A stretch of 35,933 nt of DNA from a virus (lineage: Duplodnaviria > Heunggongvirae > Uroviricota > Caudoviricetes), in IMG/VR virus record IMGVR_UViG_2684623171_000008; one strand, written 5' to 3'. The notes under the pieces are model-generated. The model was not told the origin of the DNA, ran no database searches, and saw nothing but the letters and a program-made list of their open reading frames with translations. A program made the translations under genes and the position numbers. This document shows, piece by piece, positions 22,327 to 29,697 of the stretch (positions are counted from its first letter, which is position 1; each line of letters starts with the position of its first letter).

Positions 22327-23372
22327 TGAGCAGAAAAAATAAAAAAGTGCGCATGAGTTCACGCATTGATCTCGCTGATGCGCTCAGGAAAGAATCATCG
22401 CTCAGTGCATTCACATTTGATGGTCCTTATCGCCTGACCGGGCATGACCTGCTGGACAATATGTACTGTGCTGATAACGGGCGGTGGTATGAAACCCCAG
22501 TGGACTGGTACGGTCTGGCAAGAGCTGCCCGGCAAACGTCCTGGCATCAGTCTGCGCTTTACTTTAAGCGCAATGTATTGCTCGGCTGCTATATTCCGCA
22601 CCCGCTGCTTTCCCGGCAGGATTTCTCGGCGCTGGCGCTGGACTGGTTTGTGTTCGGTAACGCATTCCTTGAGCTTCGGAGCAATATGCTCGGCGAACCG
22701 CTTAAATTACGGCACGCCCTGGCGAAATACATGCGACGCGGAAGCGATCTTGAATCATGGTGGTATGTGCAGGATGGCAAGGATGCGTTTCAGTTTCGTC
22801 CTGGCAAAGTGTGCCACCTGATGAATCCGGATATTAACCAGGAAATCTACGGCATGCCGGAATATCTTGGCGCATTACTCTCGGCCAGCCTTTCTCATTC
22901 GGCGGACATGTTCAGAAAACTGTACTACGACAACGGATCCCACGCCGGGTGCATCATCTACATCGGTGCAGCGCAGGTAAACCGCGAAAGCATGGACTCC
23001 CTGAAAGAAACGCTACAGGGGGCACGTGGTGGTGGTGCGTTTAAAAACGTGCTCATTCATGCGCCCAACGGGGGCAAAGAGGGGGTGCAAATTTTGCCGT
23101 TCCAGCAGATCACCGCAAAGGATGAGTTCATGAATGTTAAGGCGGCATCCCGTGATGATGTGCTGGCTGCGCACCGCGTTCCGCCGCAACTGATGGGGGC
23201 GATGCCGGGCGAAAAAAGTGCGTTTGGTGATGTGGAGAAGGCCGCGCGGGTTTACGCAATTAACGAGCTGATGCCCGTCATGGAGGCCATGAAGCACATC
23301 AATGACTGGCTTGGCGAAGAGGTGATCCGCTTTAACCCTTACGCACTGTTAGATACCCAGCCCACATCCTGA
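22326..23372 (+). CDS. Q: Portal (capsid vertex) protein Q
   Basis: 348 aa; ATGA overlap with the P stop; last gene before the presumed cos region. Confidence 0.9.
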   Translation: MSRKNKKVRMSSRIDLADALRKESSLSAFTFDGPYRLTGHDLLDNMYCADNGRWYETPVDWYGLARAARQTSWHQSALYFKRNVLLGCYIPHPLLSRQDFSALALDWFVFGNAFLELRSNMLGEPLKLRHALAKYMRRGSDLESWWYVQDGKDAFQFRPGKVCHLMNPDINQEIYGMPEYLGALLSASLSHSADMFRKLYYDNGSHAGCIIYIGAAQVNRESMDSLKETLQGARGGGAFKNVLIHAPNGGKEGVQILPFQQITAKDEFMNVKAASRDDVLAAHRVPPQLMGAMPGEKSAFGDVEKAARVYAINELMPVMEAMKHINDWLGEEVIRFNPYALLDTQPTS

Positions 23373-23825
23373 CGCGCTTCGCTTGTCTGCTGCTTCGCCG
23401 GGGCATAAAAAATTTATGCCCCGACTCTCCAGCTCCTGTATCAGTCAGATAATTTCACGACGCTTTCCTGCTTATTGCCATCATCGACGGTCAGATTCTT
23501 ACGCAATCCCACTGCGCTGACTGCATGTTCTCGCCGCCTCAGTGCGATTTTGACGGCCTTACCTTTCACCCCATCAAACCAGAATCCCTCACGTATTTTT
23601 CACGCTCAGCGTGAGAAATACGGCCATTCTGTCGTGTCGCTGCGACATCGTTAAGGGAACGCTATTTACCCCCCTGAAACGCGGGCTGTTCCCCCGTCAC
23701 TTGCGCGCAGAAAAAACGCGTTTTTTTGTGCACGTACGGATCCTTGACGGATCCAGCCACCACGCGGGCCGGAAGTACAAAAAGTCGTTCAAAAAAATTG
23801 TGCAAACTTGTGCACTATCGTGCAA

Positions 23826-23851
23826 ACAAAAAAAGCGCCTTATCGGCGCTT
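23826..23851 (-). terminator. Rho-independent terminator for the leftward ORF at 23860-24129
   Basis: Hairpin AAGCGCC-TTATC-GGCGCTT followed on the minus strand by a U-run. Confidence 0.5.
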
Positions 23852-23859
23852 CAAAAGTA

Positions 23860-24129
23860 TCAATTGTTGCTGTTTATTAATCGCCAACCACGAACATATG
23901 CTTCATAGGCATCTCTGTGCCTTACAGTTCCAGCCTGGCTAAACGGAATGTTAGCTAAAACTAAATCATTCTGAGCCATAGCGCGTCCTTCAAGCGCATC
24001 TTTTATGCCTAGCTCAAAAGCACAGGCAGCGCATTTGTGCCGACCTTCTTGTCCTTGATATTCAGGGAGAGACAGAAATGTTGGATTATAACGATGAGGG
24101 TTCTTGCAAATACCTGTTTTAGCCCGCAC
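23860..24129 (-). CDS. Hypothetical Cys-containing protein (89 aa) in the old/tin cargo position
   Basis: GTG start; preceded by a long structured leader and followed by a terminator; no recognisable family. Confidence 0.35.
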   Translation of the reverse strand: MRAKTGICKNPHRYNPTFLSLPEYQGQEGRHKCAACAFELGIKDALEGRAMAQNDLVLANIPFSQAGTVRHRDAYEAYVRGWRLINSNN

Positions 24130-24258
24130 TTTATTTACCTCATAGGAAAAATATGCGTGCCTTTACAGAGGTGCGTGTAAGCAATAAAATATACGACGCA
24201 CATTTTGATTTACTTCGGAAGGCACGCATATCAGGTTAAGTGAGTCCGACCGAGTTTT

Positions 24259-24293
24259 ACGCCCCAATAGTTGCTGCTATTGGGGCGTTTTGC
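24259..24293 (+). terminator. Strong hairpin with T-run (plus-strand terminator-like) inside the leader region
   Basis: ACGCCCCAATAG-TTGCTG-CTATTGGGGCGT followed by TTTTG. Confidence 0.45.
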
Positions 24294-24337
24294 ATGGACA
24301 ATGCCGCGCAATTATCTTGTCGCTCACAATGCGAACG

Positions 24338-24365
24338 ATCTTACAAAAAGGCACATTACTGTCAA
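24338..24365 (-). promoter_or_regulatory. Near-consensus sigma70 promoter (TTGACA-N16-TAAGAT, minus strand) overlapping a 13-bp inverted repeat
   Basis: Hexamers read directly; the -35 lies within arm GTCAAGATAATTG, whose partner CAATTATCTTGTC is at 24310-24322. Confidence 0.4.
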
Positions 24366-24493
24366 GATAATTGATCGTTTTAATCGATAGATAATAGACA
24401 ATCTATTTGTTTAACAGATCGATTATTGAAGTAAGTGTGCCAAATGGAATGATACTGTCTCTATAAACGTGAGCATTTTTCGCGCAGATGCTT

Positions 24494-24805
24494 TTACTCA
24501 GGAAATAACGCCCGGATATTCCCAGCCATCTGGCTGGTTATCTTAGCCACTGGTGCAGACTGTGCTTCAAACTTTTTTGAGCTGATTTGTGTCACAGGTA
24601 ACATCTCATCATCAGCCCATGCGGCCAGTCGGTAAGCCTCTGCCGGATTCGTCTTCAGAAGTGCCAGCCCGGCCAGAAAAGCCACGCGTTGGCCGCTTTT
24701 GCGGGCTTCTGGTGTAAGGCTGTCCAGCCAGGCGCATGCTTCTCCTTCGTTCTTGACGGCGGCGGGCTTCAGATAGAAACTTATCCGTCTGGTTGGTGTC
24801 GTCAT
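24494..24805 (-). CDS. ParR/StbB-like partition adaptor protein
   Basis: 103 aa from ATG 24805 (AAGGAG RBS); ISFYLKP...LDSLTPEARKSGQRVAFLAGLAL...LFPE resembles plasmid R1 ParR; directly follows the parM-like gene. Confidence 0.65.
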   Translation of the reverse strand: MTTPTRRISFYLKPAAVKNEGEACAWLDSLTPEARKSGQRVAFLAGLALLKTNPAEAYRLAAWADDEMLPVTQISSKKFEAQSAPVAKITSQMAGNIRALFPE

Positions 24806-24809
24806 TGGT

Positions 24810-25769
24810 TTACTCCTTGTCCATTGCGTACAGCCCATTAACCAGAGCAAACTGTGGCACCCCGTCCGCGATGAAAGTCGCATTAACTCCGCAGGCTTCG
24901 CGGATAGCGGGTGCCACAATCTCCGCCCCGCCACCGACAACCATCACCCGCCCGTAACCCGAAAAAACCGCCAGCGCGCGGATCACGCGTTGTTTCAGTG
25001 TTTCTTCCTTTTCACGAATAACCGCCATCAGGCTGGCGTAATGCGCGTCATTGTGGATGTGCTGGCGCAGCCAGGCTTCATTATGGCGATGTTCGATAAT
25101 GGTATTGGCGATGTGGTGACTGGTGCGCATACCGTTAGTGGCCATCACCGACAGTACGGCATCGGCCATAAGAGAAACGCCTACGTGTGGATCGCAAAAC
25201 ACCTGGCTGATACCTGCCAGTTGCCCCTGAACCTTTGCCACATCCAGCGTGGTTCCGCCCAAATCCACAATCAGCAGGGATTCAAACGGACTCATGTCAG
25301 CCAGTGCTTTAAAGCCAGCCGGAATGGATTCAGGCATAACCCGTACGTTACGGATAGTGAATGCTTCGCCGTTCTGGTACTCCACCGGGCGCATGACGTT
25401 CGCTTTTTTGCGGTTGATGTTGGCCATGTCCGGCTGTGCGTTTGTGTCGAAATATTCGCTCAGTGGCAGGGTAACAACCACATCCACTTCCTGTGGCGTG
25501 ATGTCTGATTTGACCAGCGCGTGATGAATGGCAATGACATTCACATCGCTGTACTGGTATTGCGTGTCGGTCGTCTGGACAAAGCGATCGCTGACCGGAT
25601 CAAAACCATAGCGCACGCCATCAAGCATGTAGTTAGCAGGCTGCGAGCCACCGAACGGCGCAGACCATTCCGACTTGAAGCTGTTCGGGCTGATGGCGTT
25701 GCGGCGTTCGCCGTTCTCAGTCCATGCCAGCTTGATGTTGGTGGAGCCGTCGTCGATGTAAATTTTCAT
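24810..25769 (-). CDS. ParM/StbA-like actin-type segregation ATPase
   Basis: 319 aa; MKIYIDDGSTNIKL, LIVDLGGTTLD and VMVVGGGAEI are actin-fold phosphate and adenosine motifs; extensive resemblance to R1 ParM as recalled from memory. Confidence 0.85.
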   Translation of the reverse strand: MKIYIDDGSTNIKLAWTENGERRNAISPNSFKSEWSAPFGGSQPANYMLDGVRYGFDPVSDRFVQTTDTQYQYSDVNVIAIHHALVKSDITPQEVDVVVTLPLSEYFDTNAQPDMANINRKKANVMRPVEYQNGEAFTIRNVRVMPESIPAGFKALADMSPFESLLIVDLGGTTLDVAKVQGQLAGISQVFCDPHVGVSLMADAVLSVMATNGMRTSHHIANTIIEHRHNEAWLRQHIHNDAHYASLMAVIREKEETLKQRVIRALAVFSGYGRVMVVGGGAEIVAPAIREACGVNATFIADGVPQFALVNGLYAMDKE

Positions 25770-25798
25770 GTCGGTTTTCCTTATGTTGATTAATTAAT

Positions 25799-25912
25799 CG
25801 TTTACGGGATTCTGAAATCCCGTTTTTGCCTGTTTTGTGCGCGCCTCATATATCGCTGCGCGTTTTTTGCTCATTTACGGGATTCGTGAGTCCCGTTTCT
25901 GTCTGTTTTTTG
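25799..25912. repeat. Two ~41-bp direct repeats, each with an 8-bp-stem hairpin, upstream of parM (candidate parC-like centromere/operator)
   Basis: Repeat 1 at 25799-25839 and repeat 2 at 25872-25912 (TTTACGGGATTC..TCCCGTTT..CTGTTTT), 73 bp apart; repeat 2 lies in the last codons of gene A. Confidence 0.45.
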
Positions 25913-28686
25913 TTTCCACTGGTCAGGCCACCCCGCAGCAGGTCTGCTTTGCGGCTGGCGCGTTCAGTGGTTTCACTGATTCTCTGTGCGTGCTCTGCGT
26001 CGCGGATGGCGCGCAGCATGTCAGAAAGCACGGTAACGGGTGTTTTCATGGTGTTCTGGTCCTGCTGAAGTGTGGATGCCAGGCGTGCGGCGGCTTCAGG
26101 GTCTGATGCCCCCAGCTGTGCCAGATAGCTGGCGACCGGGTTATGGCGGATCTCCGTGCTGCTTACGCCATGATTACGGCTCAGACGCTGCCAGAGCTGC
26201 GTGATTCGGCTGTCCGGGCGGGTATCCGGTTTGCGTACAATTTCAAATCCCTGCGGTGCAATGATGCTGCCGTCAACGTACAGACTGCCGCCCCGTAACA
26301 GGTGCTGCATCTGTTGTTCACCGATATGCAGGCCGAGAGATTCAGCAGACTCCCGCCATTCTTTAGCGAGTAACTCGTGGTTATCAGGCAAAGGCCGCTG
26401 CTGTTTGCGGCTCTGTGTCCAGTTCTGCATTTCATCGCTGCTGTTTTTTGCCTGTTTGTCACGAAGCGAACGCATCAGCGCCCGGCGTTCGTGCCGTTTC
26501 AGTGAGCGCATCCATTCATTTACTTCAACGCCGTCAGGAAGCTGCGGCCACGGTGCTGGCCGTTCTTCCGGCTGTTCTGTCCCGTTGTTGCCTGTTTCCT
26601 GTACACGGGGACAGTTATTGCCACGAGTCCAAGGGGCGGCAGGGCCGCCCTGAAGGTCAAAACCATTTTCGCGGGCGCTGTCTTCCGCTTCCGGTTTGCG
26701 TCTTACCAGCTTCCAGTTATCCGGATGCGTGCATACGCGGGAAGACTCCCCAATGAGCGGCGACCAGATCCCGTAAATCTGTACGCTCTGTTCACCGTAA
26801 TCGTTCAGCTCATCTGCGAGGTCGTAGGCGGTGCGAATCAGGTAGTCTTTGCGTGGAACAAGTACGCCACCCTGTTTCTCAATGTAGGTGGCAAAACATC
26901 CGGCATCAGCGGCAGCGAGTACCGCGTCCATTGCGTCATCCTTCAGCCGTTGCGGGCCTTCCGGATTGCGTGCCATCTGGCTGGCAAGGCGGCGCAGTTC
27001 ACGCCACACCTGACGGGAGGGGATGCCAAAGAACTGGAACTGACGGACCCGGTGAAGGCGCGCCCAGCCGATGGCGCGCTCCACGCTCTCGGCCATTGAT
27101 TTACCTGTTTCGTGGTCAACGCGTGGCTTGCCCGTTTTCGGGTCGATGCCATCCACGGCGCGGCTGTCCAGGTTCTTTCCGATGTAGGTGGCGATGTAGC
27201 TGGTTGGCGTGCCTTTTGAGCCGTCGACGTACTCCGCCTTAAAACGCGGAGTTATGTCATCGCCCAGCTCGTGGCGGTCTTCCTGAATGGCAATATCGCA
27301 GACGTGGGACACGATGGTTTCAATCTCGTCCGGATGTGCAAAGACCATCATATGCCAGTGCACAGTGCCGTCATGGTGAGGCTCCACCGTGCGGATGCCA
27401 TACCAGCGCAGGCCGTCGCGGTTCAGTTTTTTGCGGACCGCCGCAAAAAACGTGTTAACCAGGTAATCGCTGGAGTCGCGCATTGTGGCCCCGTTCCATT
27501 TGGGATTCGGATGACCGTTCTCCGTTGTTGCGTGGTATTTTGACGGGCAGGTGACAGTCAGAAACACCGCTCTGTCGCCACGGGCTTCGGCCAGAAGTTC
27601 CAGCCCCTTCATGGTGGCCATCATTTCTGCCTTACGGTGAACCGGGTTACTTACTCCCGCGTAATACACCGTCTCGAGATCAATCGTGAACCCGTCTTCA
27701 TTTTCCAGCATGAAACTTTTCAGGAAATCGCGTGTTTTCTCGCGCTGTGCGCGAAACTCGCTTAACGCGTCCTGGCTCAGATAGGGTGATGTTTTTCTGG
27801 AAACCAGACAGGCGGCGCGGAGTTGTTCTTCCCGCCACTCGCAACGTAACAGCCACAGTTTGCGTTTCCACCATTCCGCACAGGTCAGGCGAAGGATTGC
27901 GCCCGGCAGCAGCTCCGTGTCCGGTTCGTTCCTCCGGTCTTTGTCTGTTGTCAGTGCGTCATAATGTGGAGGCATGGCGTGCAGGTGTAACGCCATGCGG
28001 GCCAGCATCTGATACGCCTTCAGCGTTACATCCATGGTCAGCTCACCATCGGTCGCGCCAAAGCCATCGCAGAGTTTTTCGAAGGTGCTGCTGAACATCG
28101 CCGCCGTCATGGTGGCCAGCGTCTGTATCTGGTGCTTGTTGAGCTGCGGCAGGTAAAGCAAATCATCCAGGCGTTCGCGTCCGGCAAGGGAGCGATAACC
28201 CGGTGTCAGCCAGCGGTGGTCGGTGCGGTCCAGGCGTTCGAATATTTTGCGCAGGGTTCCGCGCGCGTAGCGTTCAGCCTGCCAGCTCTTTTTGCCTTTC
28301 TGGCGATCGGCTTCCTGTTTTTTGCGCAGGAAAGAGAGGTGGCGGCTCAGAGGTTCACGCAGATAAACGGGAAGCACCTTCAGTGTGGCAAAAGCACGGG
28401 CCACCGGGTCTTGTTCTGTTGCCTGACGCTTGCTGATGATGCTTTGTGCCAGCTTTTCACGCTGTCCGGCTTCCTCAAGGGATGCCATGAGTTTTTTACC
28501 CACGGTGGATTGTGCGAAAAAGGCTTCCTCCTTCGCTTCCTGTTCTTCCAGAGCCTTTTTGTCTGCCTCAAGGTAGTAACGGATGGCGCGTTGCAGGTCG
28601 GTTTCAGTTTCCTGCCTGTGCTCCGTAAATCTGGCCGGATCAATGGCTGGCCGTGGTTCATTCCAGCTCCATGCAAACTCATTCAT
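25846..28686 (-). CDS. A: Rolling-circle replication initiator A (P2 gpA-like HUH endonuclease)
   Basis: About 946 aa; HWHMMVF (HUH) motif and downstream Tyr-containing region; ATGA coupling to the upstream ORF. Longer than P2 gpA as recalled from memory. Confidence 0.85.
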   Translation of the reverse strand: MNEFAWSWNEPRPAIDPARFTEHRQETETDLQRAIRYYLEADKKALEEQEAKEEAFFAQSTVGKKLMASLEEAGQREKLAQSIISKRQATEQDPVARAFATLKVLPVYLREPLSRHLSFLRKKQEADRQKGKKSWQAERYARGTLRKIFERLDRTDHRWLTPGYRSLAGRERLDDLLYLPQLNKHQIQTLATMTAAMFSSTFEKLCDGFGATDGELTMDVTLKAYQMLARMALHLHAMPPHYDALTTDKDRRNEPDTELLPGAILRLTCAEWWKRKLWLLRCEWREEQLRAACLVSRKTSPYLSQDALSEFRAQREKTRDFLKSFMLENEDGFTIDLETVYYAGVSNPVHRKAEMMATMKGLELLAEARGDRAVFLTVTCPSKYHATTENGHPNPKWNGATMRDSSDYLVNTFFAAVRKKLNRDGLRWYGIRTVEPHHDGTVHWHMMVFAHPDEIETIVSHVCDIAIQEDRHELGDDITPRFKAEYVDGSKGTPTSYIATYIGKNLDSRAVDGIDPKTGKPRVDHETGKSMAESVERAIGWARLHRVRQFQFFGIPSRQVWRELRRLASQMARNPEGPQRLKDDAMDAVLAAADAGCFATYIEKQGGVLVPRKDYLIRTAYDLADELNDYGEQSVQIYGIWSPLIGESSRVCTHPDNWKLVRRKPEAEDSARENGFDLQGGPAAPWTRGNNCPRVQETGNNGTEQPEERPAPWPQLPDGVEVNEWMRSLKRHERRALMRSLRDKQAKNSSDEMQNWTQSRKQQRPLPDNHELLAKEWRESAESLGLHIGEQQMQHLLRGGSLYVDGSIIAPQGFEIVRKPDTRPDSRITQLWQRLSRNHGVSSTEIRHNPVASYLAQLGASDPEAAARLASTLQQDQNTMKTPVTVLSDMLRAIRDAEHAQRISETTERASRKADLLRGGLTSGNKKQTETGLTNPVNEQKTRSDI

Positions 28687-29072
28687 GGCTGGTATCCCGT
28701 CACGCGCTGCCACTCCTGCGAGAAGAGGGCAGAAAGGCGGTTAAATTCAGCGGTGTATTCACTCAGCGAGGCACACCCGCCAGCAGTGCGATGCGCCAGC
28801 ATTGCCGCAAATACGGAGGCCGGGGAGTCGTAATACGCCAGCAGTGATTCTCCGTGTGGTGTCAGGCAGTGCAACGCCAGCCCGTGTGGTGTGAAGTCCA
28901 CGCGGTAGCAGTCGTCTACTGTGAAATAAAGGGTGTCTGCATTCTCCGGTTTTGTGGTGCGTGCTCTGTTGTCACGACCACGGATGTAGAGATCAAATAA
29001 TCCCTGAAGAACGGGAGCCAGACGGGTGTCCTGTGTGCGCACCCATCTTGTGAAGTCATGAGCGTCAATCAT
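28683..29072 (-). CDS. Hypothetical early-operon protein (129 aa)
   Basis: Translationally coupled to A (ATGA overlap). Confidence 0.45.
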   Translation of the reverse strand: MIDAHDFTRWVRTQDTRLAPVLQGLFDLYIRGRDNRARTTKPENADTLYFTVDDCYRVDFTPHGLALHCLTPHGESLLAYYDSPASVFAAMLAHRTAGGCASLSEYTAEFNRLSALFSQEWQRVTGYQP

Positions 29073-29375: not shown

Positions 29376-29552
29376 GGGGTGGCCTCTTTGGTTGTAAGTT
29401 TTGAAAACTCACCATCCAGAGGTGGAAAACTCGGGGTGGTGAGACGTACAGGGTTTCCACAACCGGCAACCAAAGAACCCGGCCCGACCGAAGTCGGCCC
29501 TGTACGCCCCACCATAATTCGTGTGCGAAAAAGACGTGGCGATACGGTACGC

Positions 29553-29576
29553 ACAAAAAAACCGCTGGCGCGGTTG
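29553..29576 (-). terminator. Rho-independent terminator-like hairpin within the early operon
   Basis: AACCGC-TGGC-GCGGTT hairpin followed on the minus strand by a U7 run. Confidence 0.45.
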
Positions 29577-29697
29577 TGCGCTTTGGTTGTCAGCGGGGTG
29601 GAAATCCCGGCACCCGTTTTATGAGGTGCAGCGGAAATGTAACCTGACTGATTGCGGCATGGCAAGCGGTTTTTTTGTGTGTGCATGTTCTGGTTTC

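Follow-up and report, generated by a model that had tools for sequence, protein, structure and literature searches.

The window analysed here, the 35,933-nucleotide (nt) viral record IMGVR_UViG_2684623171_000008, is a P2-like (Peduoviridae) prophage, and our subject is its replication initiator gene A, the repeats at the 3' end of that gene, and the parM and parR genes (together parMR) that follow it. An earlier note on this DNA had described the A homologue as long and a putative parC repeat as lying within the 3' end of the gene, and the sequence supports that description. The 4.4-kb block from 24400 to 28800 is 100% identical to the chromosome of Escherichia coli O157:H7 FRIK944, where the copy of the prophage adjoins btuC. 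The features of A and of the partition (par) cassette are:

25846..28686, minus strand: gene A, a P2 gpA-family HUH rolling-circle replication initiator, stop codon included (open reading frame (ORF), PF05840, RefSeq/GenBank)
27340..27360, minus strand: HUH motif HWHMMVF, amino acids (aa) 443-449 (H443, W444, H445 and F449 invariant in the alignment)
27184..27198, minus strand: presumed active-site tyrosine pair Y497-x3-Y501, in SYIATYIGKN (both tyrosines invariant in the six-sequence alignment)
25930..25960, minus strand: left edge of the par cassette, within the 3' end of A (DNA alignment against L025 and L027, two related loci that have no parMR)
25871..25912, minus strand: putative parC repeat 1, codons 925-939 of A, palindrome at 25877-25896 (upstream of parM in all parMR loci examined)
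25840..25870, minus strand: inter-repeat spacer with the A stop codon at 25846-25848 and a short GC inverted repeat (sequence)
25798..25839, minus strand: putative parC repeat 2, intergenic, palindrome at 25804-25823, 28 nt upstream of the parM ATG (repeat search)
24810..25769, minus strand: parM, actin-like segregation ATPase, 319 aa (Pfam)
24494..24805, minus strand: parR, predicted StbB-family centromere-binding adaptor, 103 aa, starting 4 nt after the parM stop (Pfam, RefSeq)

Gene A and the partition cassette behind it

The minus-strand ORF encodes 955 aa when read from a GTG (25846..28713) and 946 aa when read from the ATG at 28686, which overlaps the stop of the ORF upstream. The shorter, 2841-nt form is annotated both in RefSeq (WP_001001609.1, FRIK944) and in GenBank (PhiR44_2). 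The Pfam Phage_GPA match (PF05840, E = 1.5e-129) covers profile positions 1-321 of 321, and A shares with P2 and 186 gpA this whole-profile match, the HUH motif, the YxxxY pair and a conserved N-terminal AWxWNxPR motif. We take the two tyrosines of P2 A to be its catalytic pair, and on this basis Y497 and Y501 are named the active site. Judged by these motifs, the product of gene A is a true HUH rolling-circle initiator of the P2 type, for which site-specific nicking with covalent attachment at the origin, and cis-acting replication, would be expected. ORF, Pfam match and database annotation together bear out the earlier note's A homologue of 946 aa with an HWHMMVF motif. PADLOC gave no match for ParM, ParR or A, and a defence role was rejected on that ground.

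ParM is matched over its full length by Pfam StbA_N (E = 9.7e-81) and by the ParM C-terminal domain (E = 3e-68), and is about 46% identical to StbA (ParM) of an IncF plasmid. ParR matches Pfam Plasmid_stab_B (E = 2.4e-23) and is 33% identical over its N-terminal 61 aa to IncF StbB (E = 1e-8). A ParM gene followed by a small ParR adaptor gene is the arrangement that marks a type II ParMRC locus. Upstream of parM lie two 42-nt repeats, 25798-25839 and 25871-25912, which are 81% identical and 73 nt apart. Each holds the palindrome ACGGGA-N8-TCCCGT, of which the window has 2 sites against 0.05 expected; none of 100 shuffles gave two or more. Repeat 1 falls within the last 22 codons of A, where the earlier note had placed one repeat copy in the last ~20 codons, and repeat 2 within the 76-nt gap from the A stop to the parM ATG at 25769. 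parC has been defined as repeats upstream of the operon that are either continuous or split in two (PMC5016525); those of the window occupy a single site directly upstream of parM and are split in two. The repeats thus occupy the position of the centromere in a type II partition locus, upstream of parM and a StbB-family parR. They are best read as parC, presumably with centromere function and bound by ParR.

The motif AAAC(A/G) occurs on the minus strand at -139, -129, -96, -66, -56 and -34 from the parM ATG, with spacings of 10, 33, 30, 10 and 22 nt. These are near multiples of the helical turn and would fit several ParR dimers on one face of the DNA, for a motif that was picked post hoc. Manual inspection of conserved hexamers near parC gave weak promoter candidates only, and no promoter is claimed. 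There is no sense-strand terminator between A and parM, and parMR may be co-transcribed with A from the early promoter by read-through.

The cassette shares with ParMRC of plasmids R1 and R100 (where parM is stbA and parR is stbB) the gene order parC-parM-parR and proteins of the StbA and StbB families. The parC of an IncF (R1/R100-type) plasmid likewise has two iteron blocks, offset by 72 nt against the 73 nt found here, with A-rich, helically phased motifs. The window differs in having two 42-nt units with a 20-nt palindromic core instead of 2 x 5 direct 11-bp iterons, in having no recognisable promoter between the blocks, in placing repeat 1 inside coding sequence, and in being chromosomal and carried by an integrating phage. 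In this last respect it resembles srpMRC of the SXT/R391 integrative and conjugative elements, a ParMRC-like system on an integrated element that undergoes HUH rolling-circle replication once excised, although SrpR has no recognisable ParR homology whereas the ParR described here is clearly of the StbB family (PMC4489591). srpMRC was shown to stabilise both the element and a test plasmid and is the closest tested precedent for the predicted partition role of the window's cassette (PMC4489591). Our literature search on the P88/Xuanwuvirus partition system and on PhiR44 found no functional study.

Origin and length of A

The origins of HUH initiators typically have a hairpin beside a conserved nick sequence. 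The following features in and around the predicted origin were located in A:

26605..26671, minus strand: predicted origin, hairpin plus 32-nt core, codons ~672-694 of A (homology to the P2 and 186 origins)
26650-26634, minus strand: GC hairpin GGGCGGC-CCT-GCCGCCC (arms covary among A types)
26638-26607, minus strand: 32-nt origin core CGCCCCTTGGACTCGTGGCAATAACTGTCCCC (exact in Klebsiella and Yersinia A)
26579..26597, minus strand: origin-adjacent motif AAACAGGCAACAACGGGAC, 19 nt, resembling the left half of the parC repeats (pattern search)
25849..26610, minus strand: post-origin tail of A, aa 693-946 (alignment, distant homologues, AlphaFold2 model)

The annotated rep_origin features of the P2-type phage fiAA91-ss (GCGCCTCGGAGTCCTGTCAAT) and of 186 both lie inside A, in codons for ..AP(R/S)..VNNC, which fits the earlier note's statement that the P2 origin is within gene A. 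The homologous codons of the window (AAPWTRGNNC) read GCCGCCCCTTGGACTCGTGGCAATAACTGT and are identical to the P2 origin at 22 of 27 positions. A search of the whole window for the P2 nick sequence, allowing up to 3 mismatches, found none, and the origin was located by codon-position homology instead. The 32-nt core is identical in the A genes of Klebsiella and Yersinia, whose proteins have 43% identity to that of the window and in which the next longest exact runs are 14-16 nt; with the A gene of Hafnia, the window has an exact run of 65 nt in common. As in P2 and 186, whose origins occupy the homologous codons (..AP...NNC), the core is directly preceded on its 5' side by a GC hairpin. Its arms differ among A types but pair in each: GGGCGC-TT-GCGCCC in Klebsiella and Yersinia, GCGGC-ATC-GCCGC in the P2 type and GGGCGC-TTCT-GCGCCC in 186. 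By analogy with the annotation of 186, the nick would fall between 26629 and 26628. The predicted origin is thus within A, about 700 nt upstream of the parC repeats.

To place the extra residues of A, six sequences, among them those of the window, the P2-type phage fiAA91-ss, 186, Klebsiella and Yersinia, were aligned with the invariant tripeptide NNC as landmark. A has 946 aa in the window, 765 in fiAA91-ss, 694 in 186, 804 in Klebsiella and 802 in Yersinia, an excess for the window of 181 aa over the P2 type and 252 aa over 186. The landmark occupies aa 690-692 of window A, 624-626 of P2-type A, 615-617 of 186 A and 679-681 of Klebsiella A. Before it, window A is about 66 aa longer than P2-type A, owing to an insert between the N-terminal AWSWNEPR motif and the core that it has in common with the A proteins of Klebsiella and Yersinia, the closest homologues outside its clade (43-44% protein identity). 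After it, window A has 254 aa against 139 in the P2 type, 77 in 186 and 123 in Klebsiella, and, unlike in P2 and 186, its last ~35 codons come from the downstream cassette. The alignment with P2-type and 186 gpA proposed in the earlier note therefore assigns about 66 of the extra residues to the part before the origin and about 115 to the part after it, relative to the P2 type.

The earlier description of A as unusually long holds against P2 and 186 but does not hold within its own clade. The 90%-identity cluster of window A has 16,881 member sequences, of which the 946-aa form is the dominant one, and close relatives have 941, 940, 935, 916, 910, 879, 872 and 830 aa. The 946-aa form is not an outlier in this range; it is the standard form in P88-like (Xuanwuvirus) prophages and a normal, modular member of the family. 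Since its extra residues are typical of the clade and consist of modules common to other A proteins, the length needs no special explanation.

The post-origin tail begins with a variable linker, which is followed by a conserved C-terminal domain (~aa 795-885, 26032-26304); a long helix (~aa 883-922) comes next, and the end is predicted to be disordered. HMMER with aa 693-924 against 1.84 billion representatives returned 26 proteins only, which include distant GPA-family proteins and fragments such as P0131 (841 aa, with a GPA domain and a VNNC motif). These distant homologues have in common a region of about 90 aa, LG..LS..Q...LLRG..L...G.I.SA...GE..RRKD...DRK...LW.RM...HN.D...IR.DP.G.Y..MLK, that corresponds to aa ~795-885, and the domain is also present in relatives without parMR. 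An AlphaFold2 model of aa 783-946 (mean predicted local distance difference test (pLDDT) 77) has three strands, several helices and the long helix 883-922. Neither the tail nor its model gave a significant match in Pfam, in PDB sequences or with Foldseek against the PDB. The post-origin tail is a real, clade-specific protein module. At the other end of the protein, the N-terminal ~110 aa (~28360-28686, minus strand) form a second exchangeable module: proteins that are more than 95% identical to the core of window A (P0004, P0009, P0011, P0018) begin either MNEFAWSWNEPRPAIDP... or MTTEYIRDWQQPRHAVGREG...

Repeats, parMR and the overlap with A

Related loci were retrieved through an exact-protein look-up. 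Those with parMR are:

L011, Hafnia: A of 913 aa, 59% identical, directly upstream of parM; both repeats present
L013, Salmonella: A of 872 aa; an unrelated 142-aa ORF (orf142) directly upstream of parM; both repeats present
L030, Logan assembly: A of 870 aa; an unrelated 155-aa ORF directly upstream of parM; both repeats present
L016-L018, near-identical prophages: A as in the window, directly upstream of parM; both repeats present

In all parMR loci examined, the stretch of ~150 nt that begins with repeat 1 and ends at the parM ATG is kept, including the palindromes and the ribosome-binding site, and in L013 similarity to the window begins only at repeat 1. The palindrome motif was absent from every locus that has no parMR, namely L014, L025, L027, L028, L029, Klebsiella, Yersinia, the P2 type and 186. 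L014 is a CP-933T-like prophage in a complete genome, with an A of 830 aa. The A proteins of L025 and L027 (910 and 916 aa) have the same tail as that of the window, with other cargo behind them; nucleotide identity to the window is 95-99% through the tail and fades at ~25930-25960, beyond which these A genes stop within 15-25 codons in unrelated DNA. The par cassette thus starts about 20-40 nt before repeat 1, as marked by the point at which homology with L025 and L027 fades. Across orthologues, the repeats co-occur with parM-parR and are not co-inherited with A or its origin. The earlier note had named the absence of the repeats from orthologous A genes as a refuting outcome, and for the origin idea this is the outcome obtained in the loci without parMR. 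A scan of genome contigs with ParM gave 9 loci, of which three are near-identical prophages; the rest have plasmid-type ParMs, ~50% identical, with different repeats.

The A frame, or the ORF in its place, ends differently from locus to locus. In the window it stops at a TGA in the spacer (...NEQKTRSDI*); in a variant with one A fewer (an A5 instead of an A6 run), at a TAA after palindrome 1 (...NKNRQKRDSQIP*); in Hafnia, at a TGA in the palindrome loop (...NKQKRDS*); and in orf142, at a TAA in the loop (...NEQKRDS*). AlphaFold2 gives a pLDDT of ~51 over the last 24 residues of A, the parC-encoded end. From the varying frame and stop together with this predicted disorder, the last ~35 codons of A appear to be free of selection at the protein level. 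The comparison argues that the overlap of A with repeat 1 is incidental and not a functional fusion.

We consider it probable that A is a modular P2-type initiator that runs into the parC of a neighbouring ParMRC cassette, with its origin elsewhere in the gene. A would then consist, in order, of a variable N-terminal segment, a catalytic core, an embedded origin and a clade-specific tail, and the type II (ParMRC) cassette would sit directly downstream of it in the gpA-gpQ hotspot. The two 42-nt repeats, each with a GGGATT..AATCCC palindrome after helically phased AAAC(A/G)G motifs, would serve as centromere and operator and be bound by ParR. With no stop codon before the start of the cassette, the A frame would run through repeat 1 and end in the spacer, and its last ~35 codons would be an incidental, unstructured appendage. 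This would settle the reading of a very common E. coli prophage gene, whose predicted origin (26605-26671) and partition site (25798-25912) can now be annotated separately.

Several observations weigh against this interpretation. There are only two large repeat units, whereas R1 has 10 x 11-bp and pSK41 4 x 20-bp iterons, short tandem units of which each binds one ParR dimer. A sigma-70 consensus scan of 25600-26200 found no promoter in or between the repeats, unlike in R1 parC; in type II systems the par promoter lies within parC and is autoregulated by ParR. The palindrome arms are invariant, and covariation can therefore not tell a DNA site from an RNA hairpin. The left half of the repeats recurs right after the origin core, which is unexpected if the repeats are purely parC. 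Finally, 1639 of the 1641 places at which the A-parM-parR block was found in complete E. coli genomes are chromosomal, which makes the need for a partition system itself puzzling. This near-exclusive location speaks against a stable plasmid state, though it would be compatible with a role in a transient episome after infection or induction.

The recurring left half (AAACAGRCARNARCGGGAY) has its third copy at 26597-26579, nine nt past the end of the origin core; 140 nt further on, at 26457 (26441-26457, minus strand), there is a related run, AAACAGGCAAAAAACAG. The window has 7 occurrences of the pair pattern AAC[AG]G-N5-6-AAC[AG]G where 0.6 would be expected, and five of the seven fall between 25834 and 26596 on the minus strand. 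The origin-adjacent motif encodes a conserved peptide, QETxNxGTE; it is kept in L025 and L027, which have no parMR, and missing in the parMR-positive L030. It appears to be tied to the type of tail rather than to parMR and is probably not part of parC; it is the sole observation that leans towards a link with the origin or an extended ParR array. A third full repeat at 26560-26601 (62%) was considered and rejected, as only the 19-nt left half matches. An extended parC array, or origin-related repeats, was likewise rejected as the principal interpretation, since motif and parMR occur independently of each other (L030 against L025 and L027).

The palindromes might instead act in RNA, in the processing or stability of the A-parM transcript or in the translation of parM, or they might terminate plus-strand antisense transcripts coming from the portal and terminase side. 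On the plus strand both are terminator-like, with an 8-bp stem and a T-rich tail, and the sense RNA from 25930 to 25760 forms three hairpins in a predicted fold of -39.2 kcal/mol (z = -4.2). However, no U-tract follows the stems on the sense strand, and no plus-strand gene needs termination here; the end of the portal gene, at 23372, is 2.4 kb away. Variation is confined to the centre of the palindromes, between invariant arms, which is the pattern expected of a site for a dimeric protein, and no compensatory changes were seen. Protein binding is also the simpler reading of the close linkage to the ParR gene. We regard a role in RNA or termination as unlikely.

A functional fusion, in which the tail couples the initiator to ParR or ParM and the overlap with the repeat was selected for regulation of A by ParR, would agree with the finding of tail and ParM in the same 14 records of the phage collection; for R1, an interaction of both ParM and ParR with the HUH relaxase TraI has been reported (PMC4949242). 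We judge it very unlikely, because the same tail occurs at 95-99% nucleotide identity with unrelated cargo and no parMR (L025, L027), the tail domain is found in distant A proteins, parMR is found with a different tail and an intervening ORF (L013, L030), and the codons that overlap the repeat differ in frame and stop among loci.

Least probable, to the point of being hardly tenable, is the earlier note's alternative that the repeats are origin-related, as accessory A-binding sites, iterons or a lagging-strand (single-strand) origin working with the nick site: the P2 origin does lie inside A, the repeats fold as hairpins, and the left half and the AAC[AG]G pair pattern recur just 3' of the core and in excess of expectation, but the homologue of the origin is ~700 nt upstream, the repeats have no similarity to the P2 nick sequence, and they track parMR and not A, being absent from every A orthologue without parMR, even those with the same tail and origin (L025, L027, L014), and present with parMR where another gene separates it from A (L013, L030), while the origin-adjacent motif follows the opposite distribution (missing in L030, present in L025 and L027).

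The cargo hotspot and the spread of the block

According to Rousset et al. (2022; PMC9122126), the region between gpA and gpQ holds a putative partitioning system in about a quarter of P2-like phages, and our finding of the A-parM-parR block in 1444 of 5426 complete E. coli genomes agrees with this proportion. The isolated P88/Xuanwuvirus phages P88, PhiR44_2, 520873, P884B11 and Shae_phiSM also have the block. The par cassette of the window lies between A and the portal gene Q, as described for the gpA-gpQ hotspot (PMC9122126; PMC13586616), and relatives carry other cargo at the same place. The cargo downstream of A is an AAA ATPase with an S8 peptidase in L027; Fic together with a Phd-like antitoxin and a ClpX-type zinc-finger protein in L029; a set of small ORFs and an insertion sequence (IS) element in L014; and three unannotated reverse-strand genes in L025.

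L014 is 83-100% identical to the window upstream of 26600 and unrelated downstream of it, with the break at the 3' edge of the origin core. L028, L029 and L030 likewise diverge from the window at this edge, and L013 diverges about 55 nt past it. These breaks in identity at or near the core indicate that the variable region begins inside A and that the post-origin tail is exchangeable. The hotspot as seen here thus differs in that its variable region starts inside A at the 3' edge of the core, a detail not found in the available parts of PMC9122126 and PMC13586616; for the par cassette, the variable region starts ~35 codons before the A stop. It is conceivable, though on balance we doubt it, that the origin core is also the left-hand recombination point of the P2 cargo hotspot, where the post-origin tail is swapped together with the cargo (here parMRC). 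Possible mechanisms for such a swap are homologous exchange on the invariant core, or HUH nick-and-rejoin between co-replicating P2-like genomes. A weaker possibility is that, while the phage genome is transiently episomal, its partition complex is linked to the origin through the iteron-like motifs found there and in parC.

Two assembled sequences have joins at the core itself. L012 (Logan ERR2749070) has a 186-like backbone with a Klebsiella-like A core that is joined, within the 32-nt origin core, to a P88-like tail. A similar join at the origin core is seen in P0099, which comes from an ENA metagenome assembly. L012 was rejected as proof of recombination at the origin, as none of the 5426 complete E. 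coli genomes spans the junction. Its halves match different genomes with a 32-nt overlap, and L012 is a short-read Logan assembly; it and P0099 are possibly assembly chimeras formed via the shared 32-mer and were not used as evidence of crossover.

The partition cassette was already known as cargo of the hotspot, and the points added here are modest: a precise origin prediction, the delimitation of parC, and the observation that the variable region has its start at the origin core. A variable region starting at the origin is a lead on the recombination mechanism by which P2 hotspots swap their cargo, and the findings as a whole give targets for asking why phages that integrate should need segregation machinery of the plasmid type, as is carried by about a quarter of the P2-like ones.

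Three further observations concern the distribution of the block and its flanks. A 226-kb contig, NZ_JBQPOM010000071.1 (L017), from an assembly labelled Vagococcus sp. WN89Y, a Firmicute, has the enterobacterial prophage block with a ParM 97% identical to that of the window; contamination or mislabelling of this assembly is likely. The 1.1-kb stretch between parR and the portal gene (23373-24493) has short ORFs only, and RefSeq annotates a single 89-aa hypothetical protein there, at 23860-24129 on the minus strand. In the early region upstream of A, Rfam gathering-level matches were obtained for the C4 antisense RNA (RF01695, 82 bits) at 29432-29519 and for isrK, an Hfq-binding small RNA (RF01394, 64 bits), at 29555-29629, both on the minus strand. 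These fall in an ORF that is hypothetical in GenBank (PhiR44_2), beside an 'ash family' pseudogene in RefSeq, and suggest an antisense immunity module of the P1/P7 type in a P2-like phage.

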